64,000 bases of DNA from the IMG/VR virus record IMGVR_UViG_3300013901_000007, positions 32,001 through 96,000 of that record; one strand, given 5' to 3'. This stretch comes from a virus (lineage: Duplodnaviria > Caudoviricetes). How positions within the stretch are numbered: the first letter of the stretch is position 1; every line of letters starts with the position of its first letter. The notes under the pieces are model-generated. The model was not told the DNA's origin, did no database searches, and saw only the letters and a list, made by a program, of their open reading frames with translations. Positions 2,303 through 42,447 of this stretch are shown in pieces. A program made the translations under genes and the position numbers.

Positions 2303-2320
2303 ATACAAAACAAACCATCG
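2303..2320 (+). repeat. left 18-bp inverted repeat ATACAAAACAAACCATCG (putative invertase site)
   Basis: Exact reverse complement of 3819-3836; encodes IQNKPS in frame with the 2339 ORF. Confidence 0.9.
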
Positions 2321-2644
2321 TTACATTTAACACAGTTTATGAATATATCTGGCTATACCTTAGACGATGATGAAGAATTTTGTTTATATTGGATTGGTTC
2401 GCCTAATAATATAAAAAATGATATTGATAAAATATCATTTATTCAAATCCTTTCTCTTTGTGTAAGAAACCCCCATGTGGCTTCACCTTACTACAATCAA
2501 TTAAGAATAACTCAGATAAAGAAAACCACTGGTTCCTTACAACTATGTTTCGTAGATGATAGTAGTACTTCTACAAGTGAAAAATCTGTTGAATTGACTA
2601 GTAGTAATATTTTACAAGATGACGTTTTTGACCTTGTAAAATGA
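2303..2644 (+). CDS. silent alternative C-terminal cassette for the 3546-3908 gene
   Basis: Only credible plus-strand ORF in the region; no RBS before ATG 2339; open frame extends back through the repeat (IQNKPS-LHLTQF-MNISG...). Confidence 0.8.
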   Translation: MQNKPSLHLTQFMNISGYTLDDDEEFCLYWIGSPNNIKNDIDKISFIQILSLCVRNPHVASPYYNQLRITQIKKTTGSLQLCFVDDSSTSTSEKSVELTSSNILQDDVFDLVK

Positions 2645-2678
2645 TAATTTTATATATAATAATTATTAAAAATACTAT

Positions 2679-2711
2679 AAAAATATCCAGGGCATTGCCC
2701 TGGATATTTTT
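2679..2711. terminator. bidirectional intrinsic terminator
   Basis: AAAAATATCCAGGGC-att-GCCCTGGATATTTTT between convergent ORFs. Confidence 0.8.
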
Positions 2712-2725
2712 TCAACCCATAATTA

Positions 2726-3349
2726 TTATTTAATATGTGGTTGTATTTCTTTATTATCTATCAAACGTTTTACATATACATTTACAGTTGTAATTTTAGC
2801 ATGTATGTGTTTAGAAATATAATAAGATGTTTTACCTTCGCTCCATCTTTTAATAATATAGTCTTTATATTTATCTAATTTATATTGTTTATTATGAGTT
2901 CCTTCTTTTCTACCTAATTGTATACCCATTGCTTTACGCATTTTAAGAGCCTCTTTAGTACGTTGAGAAATTAGATTACGCTCCAATTCGGCGGCCAACC
3001 CAAAAGCAAAAGCTAATACTTTTGCATTAATACCATCATCAAGAATATATCTTTCTTTGGTTGTATAGATTGAAATTTCATTTTCTAAACAATAGTTTAA
3101 AAAAGACATAATCATCATTAAAGAACGTCCCAAACGACTTAATTCAGTACAAATAATTATATCTCCTTTTTTTATATTTTTAAGTATACCACCTAGTTTA
3201 CGTTTTTCTATAGAAACAGTACCAGATTCAGATTCTTCTACCCAGTGATTAATTTTAAAATTTTTATTTTCACAAAAATTATTAATTTCAAAACGTTGAT
3301 TTTCCACTGTTTGTTTATCAGTACTAACACGAACATAAGCTATTATCAT
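2726..3349 (-). CDS. serine recombinase / DNA invertase, Mpi-like
   Basis: YVRVSTDKQTVENQRFEI catalytic Ser motif, ELSRLGRS, KVLAFAFGLAAELERNLISQRTKEAL, C-terminal HTH. Confidence 0.92.
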   Translation of the reverse strand: MIIAYVRVSTDKQTVENQRFEINNFCENKNFKINHWVEESESGTVSIEKRKLGGILKNIKKGDIIICTELSRLGRSLMMIMSFLNYCLENEISIYTTKERYILDDGINAKVLAFAFGLAAELERNLISQRTKEALKMRKAMGIQLGRKEGTHNKQYKLDKYKDYIIKRWSEGKTSYYISKHIHAKITTVNVYVKRLIDNKEIQPHIK

Positions 3350-3478
3350 AATGAATCTCCTTTCTAACTTTGTCTTATTTTTATTTTAAATTATTTAAAA
3401 AGAAAAAACAAAATTTAAGTGTAAATATATTAAAAAAGAAAGCCTATTAATAATTTAATAAATATATAATAATTGAAA

Positions 3479-3514
3479 AAATATCCCTTAAAATATATAT
3501 TATTAGGGATATTT
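3479..3514 (-). terminator. hairpin after the expressed cassette
   Basis: AAATATCCCT...AGGGATATTT stem followed by a T-run on the minus strand. Confidence 0.55.
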
Positions 3515-3545
3515 AATATTGAAAAACAACTAATAATAGATATTA

Positions 3546-3908
3546 TTATTTAAATGTTCCTCTTATAATATGAGAATGGGATGCACATGTTAATTTGCCT
3601 AGATTACCACTCATTTGAAGTTCATCAATATCTTTTTTGACCCAACTACCATCTGTTTGTAAAACTAAAAATAATCCACTTTCATATTGTAAAGCAATTT
3701 GTGATCTGCCACCACTTCGAGGTGTATAAATTTCGTAAAAGGTGTTATCTAATGAGACATTAGAGTTTTCAGTTGCAATAGTACCTCCACTTGTACTAGC
3801 ATTTTGTGCCACAAAAACCGATGGTTTGTTTTGTATATTACTCCATTCGGTTTGAGGATATAAAATATCCCCCGCTGCATTTTTTAATTTAACATTAATA
3901 TTTGCCAT
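3546..3908 (-). CDS. small fibre/receptor-binding-like protein: constant 30-aa N-terminus plus invertible C-terminus
   Basis: ILYPQT and WSNIQNKPS are motifs common in phage tail-fibre proteins; contains the right inverted repeat; AAGGAG RBS. Confidence 0.7.
   Translation of the reverse strand: MANINVKLKNAAGDILYPQTEWSNIQNKPSVFVAQNASTSGGTIATENSNVSLDNTFYEIYTPRSGGRSQIALQYESGLFLVLQTDGSWVKKDIDELQMSGNLGKLTCASHSHIIRGTFK
3819..3836 (-). repeat. right 18-bp inverted repeat (inside coding sequence, IQNKPS)
   Basis: cgatggtttgttttgtat is the exact reverse complement of 2303-2320. Confidence 0.9.
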
Positions 3909-4016
3909 AAAAATTCTCCTTAATTTTGAAAAGCTATTAATAAAATAATCTTTTTATTAATATATTATAGATCCTCGAAATTTGGGATCTGTGAATATTT
4001 ATTGATTTGAGTTGCA

Positions 4017-4319
4017 CTAAACCTTTTCGTAAAAAACACCTGTTAAAGAATAATAATTGTCTACAATATCTGTTTGATATTGTTGTTTTAATTTCATAAT
4101 TTCATCACTAAATAATACTTGAAAGGTTTGATTGTTTAAATTAATACCTGAGAAGAAATAATCAAAACTTGCTTTCATTGAAGTAGAGGTATTTTTTAAA
4201 ACATTAATATCTTTACTATATTCTTCATAAGAAACGTAAATTGTAGGAATAATCCCTATAGCTTTAACCGCCGCATCAATTTGCGCCCCTGAATATTTAC
4301 TTGTGTATGGTTCTGCCAT
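4017..4319 (-). CDS. small virion/fibre-associated protein
   Basis: N-terminal YTSKYSGAQIDAAV resembles tail-fibre anchor motifs; follows baseplate genes. Confidence 0.5.
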   Translation of the reverse strand: MAEPYTSKYSGAQIDAAVKAIGIIPTIYVSYEEYSKDINVLKNTSTSMKASFDYFFSGINLNNQTFQVLFSDEIMKLKQQYQTDIVDNYYSLTGVFYEKV

Positions 4320-40753: not shown

Positions 40754-41434
40754 TCACTTATCTTCTTTCTGATTTTTTTCTAATCTTTTTGATGATTTCA
40801 ATTCTCGAACATTTTTATCTAATTCTGAATATAAAGTTTTATCTATTACTTCATCTGCGGTTGTTTCTTTAAATGCTTGCCATTCTGGAGAAGCAGCATT
40901 AGCGACACTCTTTAAATCAGCCAACATTTCTGGCGTTAACGAAGAAACAGTTTCGTTTAAAGAAGAAGCAAATTGTGCTAAACTTTCAGGAGTAAATAAT
41001 TCAGCTGTTTTTTCAATTCTATATACATTAGCGAAATTGTAAACTCTATCAACTAATCTTTGTAAACGCTTAAAATCTTTTTCACAGAACTTTAATAAAT
41101 ATTCATCAAATCCATATTCACATAATGTATTATAAATTAAATCTAATGATTGAAAATTATTCATATCATTTTCAAGATTGATAGCATAAGTCAATAAACC
41201 ATAAAGTAATTCGTTAATTTCTAAATTAATTCCAGATTGAATAGCATCTTTATTATCATCCCAAATATTTATACAAATTTGTGTAACAGCAATCATTTTT
41301 CTAGTTAAATTTAAATAAGAAACAATTTGTAATTTTCCAATTAAATCTTGAACTTTTGCATCATTTTTTTCTGTAGGATCATGTTTGAAAGCTAAAATAG
41401 CCTTTAACAAATCAGATAATTTTATATTTTCCAT
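40754..41434 (-). CDS. hypothetical helical protein
   Basis: 226-aa ORF overlapping the end of the recombinase gene. Confidence 0.6.
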   Translation of the reverse strand: MENIKLSDLLKAILAFKHDPTEKNDAKVQDLIGKLQIVSYLNLTRKMIAVTQICINIWDDNKDAIQSGINLEINELLYGLLTYAINLENDMNNFQSLDLIYNTLCEYGFDEYLLKFCEKDFKRLQRLVDRVYNFANVYRIEKTAELFTPESLAQFASSLNETVSSLTPEMLADLKSVANAASPEWQAFKETTADEVIDKTLYSELDKNVRELKSSKRLEKNQKEDK

Positions 41435-42447
41435 GAAATTTCTCCTTGTGCTTCTTTGTCGCGATTTTTGAAAAAATCATTTAAAATTTCATCATCACTG
41501 ACGTCATTATAGATTTTAATCATATCGCTAGATTCCCAGCTAAAAATAAGAGTGACAACATCATCGGGTAATTTCATACTCTTTAATAAAGTACAAAAAT
41601 AATGTCTTCCTGAATGACTATAAAAATCAATCTTAAATCTTCTTGATACTTTGTTAGCAAAATTATTTGCAGAAGCAACTGTAGCTGGAAGCCAATTATT
41701 TCCTTCTTTTCGAACAAATAATTCTGGAATAGTAATACCTAATTTTTCACGTTCTGCTATCCAAGCATCTAAATAAGGTTTAAATGCCTCTTTAATAACA
41801 TATTTTTTAATAACTTTTCCACGTTTTCCACGACCTTTAGAGCGAATTGGTGGAGTGCAATACATATATCCATCAAATACTTCTGTTTGTTTTGTAAAGA
41901 AATCAACTTTCATTTGTAAAAGTTCTGCTTTGCGTGCACCAGAAGAACAAACTAAAGCCACCCAACAGGCTAATTGATATTCACCTTCATCAGTTAATCT
42001 TTTTAACATTTCTTTAATTTGATCGTTGGTTAATACTGTTTTTTCTCTAACAGTAGTAATATGAACAGGTTCTAAACCTCTAAGTTGATTGTGAAATTCA
42101 GGATATTCATCTTCATACAATAATTCAATTTCAGTTGATAAACTGCTTAGACAAGATTTTAAAGCAGCAATTCTATTAGGACTCATACCTAATTCTCTTA
42201 AATACCCAAAATAAAAAACAAAATCTCTTTTTTTAAGCTTGACAAAAAGTTTATCACCATTTTCTCGATAATTCCAACAGAAAAAAACCTTTAGCCATGC
42301 TTCATACTGCTGTTGGGTTTTGGGAGATTTATCATTACTTTTGCAATATTGTAAATATTGCTTCACCAGCTGTTTATTTTGAGGCGAGACCTTTTCGTAA
42401 TCGCTGGTGAGATTATCATTATATACAGTAGACCTTGCCATAATCAA
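41422..42447 (-). CDS. tyrosine recombinase / integrase family protein
   Basis: SGARKAEL (Arg), KGRG (Lys), HSGRH, W...MIKIY catalytic pattern; N-terminal SAM-like domain. Confidence 0.88.
   Translation of the reverse strand: MIMARSTVYNDNLTSDYEKVSPQNKQLVKQYLQYCKSNDKSPKTQQQYEAWLKVFFCWNYRENGDKLFVKLKKRDFVFYFGYLRELGMSPNRIAALKSCLSSLSTEIELLYEDEYPEFHNQLRGLEPVHITTVREKTVLTNDQIKEMLKRLTDEGEYQLACWVALVCSSGARKAELLQMKVDFFTKQTEVFDGYMYCTPPIRSKGRGKRGKVIKKYVIKEAFKPYLDAWIAEREKLGITIPELFVRKEGNNWLPATVASANNFANKVSRRFKIDFYSHSGRHYFCTLLKSMKLPDDVVTLIFSWESSDMIKIYNDVSDDEILNDFFKNRDKEAQGEISWKI

Follow-up and report, generated by a model that had tools for sequence, protein, structure and literature searches.

In the phage inversion switches Mu G/Gin, P1 C/Cin, e14 P/Pin and p15B Min, a small serine recombinase acts on short inverted repeats inside a tail-fiber gene, thereby joining a constant N-terminus to alternative, opposed C-terminal parts, and both states are present in natural populations. 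In the Hin/H segment of Salmonella enterica, the hin gene itself lies inside the invertible segment of ~1 kilobase (kb), the short sites share one arm, and hixL and hixR differ in their inner half-sites. Sites of the Hin/Gin/Cin/Pin type consist of two imperfect inverted half-sites of 12 bp around a 2-bp crossover core. The hix sites are 26 base pairs (bp) long, and Hin/Gin-type invertases depend on a Fis-bound recombinational enhancer in cis (PMC3798978). A central recombinase between two opposed tail-fiber gene parts was described for the Int1 region of the haloarchaeal phages phiCh1 and phiH1 (PMC6210493), and in the Rin shufflon of Bifidobacterium prophages the small variable C-terminal cassettes of a receptor-binding protein with a constant N-terminus are swapped by inversion (PMC6109161). 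Also, Milman et al. 2023 reported an enrichment of Mpi-family recombinases (odds ratio 16) next to genes that programmed inversions alter; tail-fiber proteins are among the targets (PMC9881135). Here, we analyzed a stretch of 64,000 nucleotides (nt) from a virus of the Caudoviricetes, in the following called the window, which comprises bases 32001-96000 of the 107,525-bp IMG/VR record IMGVR_UViG_3300013901_000007 (rated 78% complete). It contains a 1.5-kb segment enclosing a serine invertase gene, and this segment is a naturally flipping two-state switch, both orientations of which are present in related contigs. Taken with all its inferred parts, the explanation that site-specific inversion switches the last gene of the tail module between two states is in our view highly probable.

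For this switch, the following mechanism is proposed. The promoter, the ribosome binding site (RBS) and the first 30 codons of the gene (the head) would form the fixed part. A serine invertase of the Mpi family with 207 amino acids (aa), encoded within the segment, would recombine two sites, the shared outer arms of which form an 18-bp inverted repeat, and would thereby turn the 1.5-kb segment round. In state A, the head would be joined to cassette A to give a protein of 120 aa, in state B to the unrelated cassette B to give 137 aa. The product would be a small trimeric tail-tip or receptor-binding protein, the head of which docks on the baseplate or fiber while the C-terminal domain recognizes the host surface. 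One phage stock would thus contain virions with two adsorption specificities (host-range bet-hedging). The elements of the switch are located in the window as follows:

2303-2320, plus strand: left repeat arm, the crossover site before the silent cassette, in frame with cassette B; the junction from the thymidylate kinase (tmk) side to cassette A is found in inverted relatives.
2321-2644, plus strand: cassette B, 107 codons and a stop, with neither start codon nor RBS of its own in the window orientation and unrelated in sequence to cassette A.
2321-3818, no strand: invertible segment, 1498 bp between the arms, or 1500 bp with a crossover 5′ of repeat position 18.
2679-2711, no strand: perfect 33-nt palindrome with a 15-bp stem and T-runs on both sides, a bidirectional terminator common to cassette B and the invertase gene.
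2726-3349, minus strand: gene of the 207-aa serine DNA invertase, inside the segment.
3479-3514, minus strand: weaker hairpin with a U-run after cassette A, upstream of the invertase gene (z = -1.7).
3546-3818, minus strand: cassette A, codons 31-120, expressed in the window orientation, silent but intact in inverted relatives.
3819-3836, minus strand: right repeat arm and crossover site within the expressed gene, spanning codons 25-30 (IQNKPS) of the 120-aa protein; the homology breakpoints of inverted relatives coincide with it.
3837-3908, minus strand: constant head with the start codon and codons 1-24; it is not part of the invertible segment, and its RBS follows directly upstream at ~3915-3920.

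The inverted repeat is perfect over 18 nt (2303-2320 on the plus strand, 3819-3836 on the minus strand), and its arms lie 1498 nt apart. Allowing up to three mismatches, two matches were found in the window, both of them the arms, while 0.07 were expected by chance and two or more were obtained in none of 100 shuffles; the same two arms were the sole matches in the whole 107.5-kb record (~78% complete). The left arm contains the same six codons as the right arm, in frame with an open frame at 2300-2644 on the plus strand. By direct reading, the 120-aa gene (3546-3908, minus strand) has the motif AAGGAG 7 nt before its ATG, and no purine-rich Shine-Dalgarno stretch is seen ahead of the ATG at 2339. 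Forms A and B of the protein have no similarity beyond the head. A preliminary description of this DNA had noted the perfect repeat around a serine recombinase gene and the peptide IQNKPS encoded by both copies, by the left one in frame with a plus-strand frame devoid of an RBS, and had predicted a self-contained invertase switch with two states and a 137-aa fusion protein. The repeat, the recombinase domain and the shared frame were confirmed, and both the fusion and the two orientations with the predicted joints were found in relatives. It had also assigned a terminator hairpin to each cassette. This holds for cassette B, after which the strong palindrome, located between the converging ends of the cassette and the invertase gene, folds far better than shuffled sequences (z = -5.7 and -5.1), but the weaker hairpin after cassette A was not called by the terminator scan. 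In the AT-rich region, 26 promoter-like sites were found compared to 15.5 expected; the promoter scan was uninformative here and no invertase promoter was assigned.

The close contigs used for comparison are >99% identical to the window and come from independent samples. Three of them have the segment in the window state and six in the inverted state, with the joints exactly at the repeat. Searching with the 120-aa protein yielded three more relatives of 120 aa and a protein of 137 aa (P0005), which consists of the 30-aa head and cassette B. The contig encoding P0005 (L003) matches the window at 99.8% identity as far as the repeat; from there on, it aligns to the opposite strand at the far end of the segment, and its two alignments overlap by exactly the 18 bp. 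Another 137-aa protein of an inverted relative (P0017) differs from the predicted fusion by one residue. Clustering at 90% identity resulted in seven distinct 137-aa fusions and, in the same cluster, four 101-aa calls representing silent cassette B, as well as in two 120-aa forms and two 88-aa calls representing silent cassette A. The whole segment is inverted in a 107,706-bp contig (coverage 127) and in a 102,561-bp contig (coverage 423), both with the order head-B, antisense invertase, silent cassette A, and thymidylate kinase. Altogether, all four junction types (head-A, head-B, tmk-side-A, and tmk-side-B) were found.

Five independent metagenome contigs (L003, L014, L021, L022, and L023) end within at most ~70 nt of the palindrome at 2679-2711, and this palindrome seems to break short-read assemblies. 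Population heterogeneity as the origin of contig ends inside the segment was rejected because the ends lie at the 33-nt palindromic terminator and not at the repeat.

For a comparison of single-nucleotide polymorphisms (SNPs), the 457-bp left flank, the 1500-bp interior and 1.8 kb of the right flank (~3.8 kb in total) were used with the window as reference. For the inverted contig L011, 2 SNPs were counted in the interior and 5 over ~3.8 kb, and for the co-oriented contigs L016 and L017, 8 and 12, respectively. The inverted contig L013 has ~17 SNPs over the whole length. The orientation is therefore interspersed on the SNP background, which requires at least two flips. Also, a Q/E allele at the start of cassette B is silent in L016 and L017 and expressed in L003. 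A G/A polymorphism at repeat position 18 occurs in both states and always travels with cassette A, in the junction of this cassette with the head as well as in that with the kinase side. This places position 18 within the invertible DNA and the crossover 5′ of position 18. In the more distant contig L005 (86% identical to the window), both sites have G instead of A at repeat position 15. Judged from the sites, the crossover is likely to proceed through a staggered cut of 2 bp, made at repeat positions 15-16 or 16-17 or directly beside them.

The protein encoded at 2726-3349 matched Pfam Resolvase (PF00239) with residues 2-142 (E 2.5e-30), PHROG 125 'DNA invertase' (E 5e-38), and the NCBIfam model NF009949 of the Mpi family over model positions 1-198 of 203 (E 2e-81). 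As had been assumed in the preliminary description, the enzyme is thus Mpi-like, the family membership resting on a margin of 0.5 bits over the cut-off (272.5 versus 272 bits). By direct reading of the translation, the catalytic motif YVRVSTDKQ, which fits the pattern Y-x-R-x-S-x-x-x-Q with the nucleophilic serine, is intact, and SRLGRS is present as the downstream arginine-rich motif. The best sequence match in the Protein Data Bank (PDB) was gamma-delta resolvase (E 1e-10), followed by Gin (E 1.5e-8); with this match and Mpi as the best NCBIfam model, the invertase is not nearest to Gin/Hin. Serine recombinases of the resolvase/invertase type have ~180-210 aa and a C-terminal helix-turn-helix DNA-binding domain. 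The alignment with gamma-delta resolvase covers residues 3-189 and includes the resolvase DNA-binding domain, while the lone Pfam helix-turn-helix match was sub-threshold (GerE, E 0.06). The gene is the sole resolvase-family gene of the record, and its product is 100% identical in six of the seven close contigs holding it and 99% identical in the seventh. From its family and its enclosed position, this enzyme is presumably the one that flips the segment.

As in the known tail-fiber switches, a constant 5′ part lies outside the segment and opposed 3′ parts lie inside, in frame across the site. The locus shares with Mu G, P1 C, e14 P and p15B Min the small serine recombinase, the short inverted repeats inside the gene, the constant N-terminus joined to alternative C-terminal parts, and the natural occurrence of both states. 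It differs from them by the location of the invertase gene, which is inside the segment here and beside the segment there, by the Mpi-family enzyme, which is nearer to gamma-delta resolvase than to Gin by PDB sequence, and by its host, probably a low-GC Gram-positive-type gut bacterium in which Fis would not be expected. Also, single cassettes of 90-107 codons are inverted without a chaperone gene (U/U' in Mu), and the constant part has just 30 aa. The arrangement of the enzyme gene within the segment, between short sites sharing one arm, resembles that of Hin; however, Hin flips a promoter, whereas here coding sequence flips and promoter and start codon stay outside. The two sites differ in their inner half-sites. 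The same topology with a central recombinase is present in phiCh1 and phiH1, but these archaeal myoviruses have a tyrosine (XerD-type) recombinase, large repeat-rich fiber genes and many crossover points. Mpi (master DNA invertase) of Bacteroides fragilis, to the family equivalog model of which the invertase aligns over its full length, acts in trans on many promoter segments, whereas in this record (~78% complete) there are two sites, which flank the enzyme gene and lie in coding sequence. The Rin shufflon is also a gut-phage system of a Gram-positive host with a constant N-terminus and small cassettes at short sites, but it has a tyrosine recombinase, several cassettes, and the recombinase outside of these.

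Three features that the preliminary description had regarded as unusual have precedents. An Mpi-like enzyme acting on coding sequence is in line with the enrichment of this family beside gene-altering inversions (PMC9881135), an invertase flipping with its own segment is found in the textbook layout of Hin and in that of phiCh1/phiH1 (PMC6210493), and a small size is typical of the head family, most members of which have ~100-280 aa. Small variable receptor-binding cassettes in gut phages of Gram-positive hosts are also known from the Rin shufflon (PMC6109161). What is new is the combination of a Hin-like layout, a Gin-like function, i.e., the swap of the C-terminus of what is probably a tail protein, and an Mpi-family enzyme. 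The mechanism itself is known, as tail-fiber inversion switches are textbook, and its understanding is unchanged.

For the swapped protein, a search of 1.84 billion representatives with a profile built from residues 1-35 yielded 106 proteins. About 60 of these are small (60-450 aa, mostly 100-280 aa), with the head at the extreme N-terminus and unrelated sequence after it. In the other matches, all of them long proteins, 5-19 copies of the second half of the head (Y-P-x-T-x-W-x-x-I-x-N-K-P-S) are present. Three of five scanned long proteins contain tail-fiber or baseplate domains, namely PTR (phage tail repeat-like), PTR with BppU_N and Phage_tail_C, and Peptidase_S74. The remaining two, with no matches or spurious ones, resemble low-complexity artefacts. 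The crossover site thus appears to be embedded in a motif of tail-fiber proteins. The small receptor-binding proteins of Gram-positive siphophages usually consist of a constant short N-terminal anchor and a C-terminal domain that varies; BppL of TP901-1 has 163 aa. Scans of IMG/VR gave no loci for form A and none for form B, and one locus for each of two head alignments. Leads from the ESM Atlas to phage fiber families were all below 0.9 and were not used as evidence. In gene direction, the order is 1860-aa protein, 418-aa tail protein, 100-aa protein, 120-aa switch gene, invertase, inverted start-less frame, and thymidylate kinase, the last being the first gene of the replication module; from this order, the switch gene is the last gene of the tail module. 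With this position, the tail-repeat-like motif and the fast evolution of the cassettes, host-range switching is the most likely function, which we assume with moderate confidence.

Divergence and the ratio of nonsynonymous to synonymous substitution rates (dN/dS, method of Nei-Gojobori) were determined between the window and the 86%-identical L005, with the following protein identities:

418-aa tail protein: 98%, dN/dS 0.06.
Head: 93%.
Invertase: 92%, dN/dS 0.11.
Thymidylate kinase: 85%, dN/dS 0.19.
Cassette B, silent in both genomes: 71%, dN/dS 0.33.
Cassette A: 53%, dN/dS 0.45.
Upstream 100-aa protein: 49%.

The cassettes and the upstream 100-aa gene are therefore the fastest-diverging genes of the region (49-71% identity versus 85-98% for their neighbors), and for the cassettes this is as expected for host-contact domains. 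Silent cassettes are open and in frame with the repeat in every genome compared, in either state. Cassette B has zero stops in 107 codons despite a protein divergence of 29%; being constrained although silent in both assemblies, it must be expressed part of the time. The 100-aa gene (window 4017-4319) diverges as fast as the cassettes and adjoins the 98%-identical 418-aa tail protein. Its product, which had no match in Pfam, PHROGs or NCBIfam, may be a partner of the cassettes.

Several relatives have other layouts. L005 has the same one as the window. L004 (93% identical) lacks the invertase and carries two complete genes in tandem, a B-type gene of 139 aa followed by an A-type gene of 120 aa, each with its own head (L004:5528-6363), the upstream-plus-head region being duplicated (139 bp). 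In L009 (6001-6868), the same head is joined to a third C-terminus (116 aa), after which a fourth cassette converges. In L027 (78-1229), this fourth cassette is arranged head-to-head with an invertase 85% identical to that of the window, and a site between the two would join in frame after the KPS codons. The sister lineage of L009 and L027 thus appears to have the enzyme outside the segment, in a Mu-like manner. L006:580-1792 and L008:1868-3077 (genetic code 4) share 92% identity as far as head codon 33 and have nothing in common beyond, with no invertase nearby; here, the C-terminal cassette was replaced horizontally at the crossover junction of the window. Genes resembling IS605 OrfB/TnpB are located nearby (L006:3543-4904 and L008:533-1672). 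In the IMG/VR contig L026 (275-1400), two tandem head-family genes encode alternative small tips side by side. For correct translation of the distant head-family genes L006:1694-2140, L007:2899-3345 and L008:2979-3446, TGA has to be read as tryptophan (code 4), while code 11 suits the window phage. Two genetic codes are thus represented among the hosts or lifestyles of this phage group.

Some observations weigh against the switch as proposed or against its assumed role. Neither form of the protein matched a profile of Pfam, PHROG, NCBIfam or PDB sequences, and the AlphaFold2 models were unusable, with a pLDDT (predicted local distance difference test) of 42 for form A (5-sequence alignment) and 44 for form B (11 sequences). 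The role as a receptor-binding tip is suggested by gene context and one shared motif. Each contig has a single orientation, and both states were seen across samples. L004 encodes both forms without an invertase, so that switching is not essential in this phage group. In L005, the silent site is identical to its partner site at 14 of 18 positions; the switch may be decaying in this lineage, or part of the 18 bp may suffice. Also, the best dyad axis, with a 2-bp core at repeat positions 15-16, is weak (6-7 of 12 symmetric positions). The missing family and fold, the very small size of the protein, and a link to the tail made by gene order and one motif would fit a real switch in which the swapped protein is no host-range determinant, serving instead as decoration, as a mucus- or glycan-adhesion fiber, as an assembly factor, or as an antigenic decoy. 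We consider this unlikely, as the gene follows directly after tail proteins as the last one of the tail module, receptor-binding proteins usually have such a constant N-terminal anchor with hypervariable C-termini, the neighboring genes evolve much more slowly than the cassettes, and the characterized phage inversion switches of like layout all act on fiber specificity (PMC6109161, PMC6210493).

The single orientation of each contig, together with the free recombination of phages, could also indicate that rare events without any program, for example homologous recombination at the 18 bp or an old inherited inversion, gave rise to the two orientations, which would then be fixed. In this case, the invertase would be a passenger or have another job. 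However, 18 bp are a poor substrate for general recombination, the joints are exact, the orientation is interspersed among genomes a few SNPs apart with at least two events, and alleles of both cassettes occur in both states. Furthermore, the invertase lies precisely between the sites and is 99-100% conserved in close contigs, cassette B has a dN/dS of 0.33 and no stop although it is silent in both compared genomes, and the sister lineage L009/L027 pairs the same enzyme (85% identical) and head with other cassettes, which makes an unprogrammed origin very unlikely. Assembly artefacts caused by the inverted repeat are barely conceivable. Several inverted-state contigs do end inside the segment (L003, L014, and L021-L023), but at the palindrome and not at the repeat, which with 18 bp is shorter than any read or final k-mer, and complete inverted segments were assembled at coverages of 127 and 423. 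The assemblies also derive from different sources and naming schemes (NODE_ and k119_ in ENA; Logan), and the SNP at position 18 stays with cassette A in both states, as predicted for real recombination. Finally, gene callers report a 101-aa open reading frame with an ATG at 2339, from which cassette B might be translated alone, so that both products would co-exist and inversion would change only the carrier of the head. This is most improbable, since there is no Shine-Dalgarno sequence before 2339 and no convincing promoter above the AT-rich background, and since the frame is conserved up to the repeat in all relatives, together with the LHLT(Q/E)F linker and the six codons common to both arms, which would be unexplained if translation started at M37 of the fusion. 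We retain the programmed inversion switch as the explanation of this locus.

Regarding its setting, the switch is located in a region with a local GC content of 22-33%, and almost all genes of the window are carried by the minus strand. The 418-aa protein matched Pfam DUF5048 and PHROG 1887 'tail protein' (E 2.5e-40), and its nearest matches in isolate phages, the hosts of which are Thomasclavelia, Geobacillus and Gordonia, have 24-30% identity. A megablast search of the switch region against isolate phages gave no match. The phage is an uncultivated, AT-rich one of ~108 kb or more, and the matches of the 418-aa protein together with the use of TGA for tryptophan in some relatives suggest a low-GC Bacillota-like or Mollicutes-like bacterium as host. 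At window positions 41422-42447, the sole tyrosine recombinase of the record is encoded (Pfam Phage_integrase, 52 bits). It could be an integrase, as in a temperate phage, or a Xer-like resolvase, and its identity bears on when flipping could occur.

A joint reading of the locus and its relatives goes further, and we put it forward tentatively, as it is doubtful that all of it holds. Many different phages of low-GC hosts, some of them using TGA for tryptophan, would plug their small receptor-binding tips into one general adaptor, the 30-aa head with its embedded W-x-x-I-x-N-K-P-S junction. The junction would serve three times, as crossover site of an Mpi-family invertase, the gene of which lies inside the segment here and outside it in a sister lineage, as breakpoint of horizontal replacement, and as boundary of tandem duplicates. 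Also, the flipping rate would depend on the state through the orientation of the invertase gene relative to transcription of the late tail operon, with co-directional read-through in state A and convergent antisense transcription in state B. If true, the switch would thus contain a bias or feedback of its own, created by orientation-dependent invertase expression, which is not described for Gin or Cin.

The locus is a compact natural example of programmed host-recognition switching, as far as the assumed function holds, in a large uncultivated gut-type phage with both states present in public assemblies. The 30-aa head with exchangeable tips of 90-110 aa would provide a small natural scaffold for studying how receptor-binding modules dock on the tail. 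Together with the arrangements of its relatives, in which the invertase lies outside, tandem genes occur without an invertase, or the cassette has been replaced, it offers a comparative series on the rise and decay of such switches.

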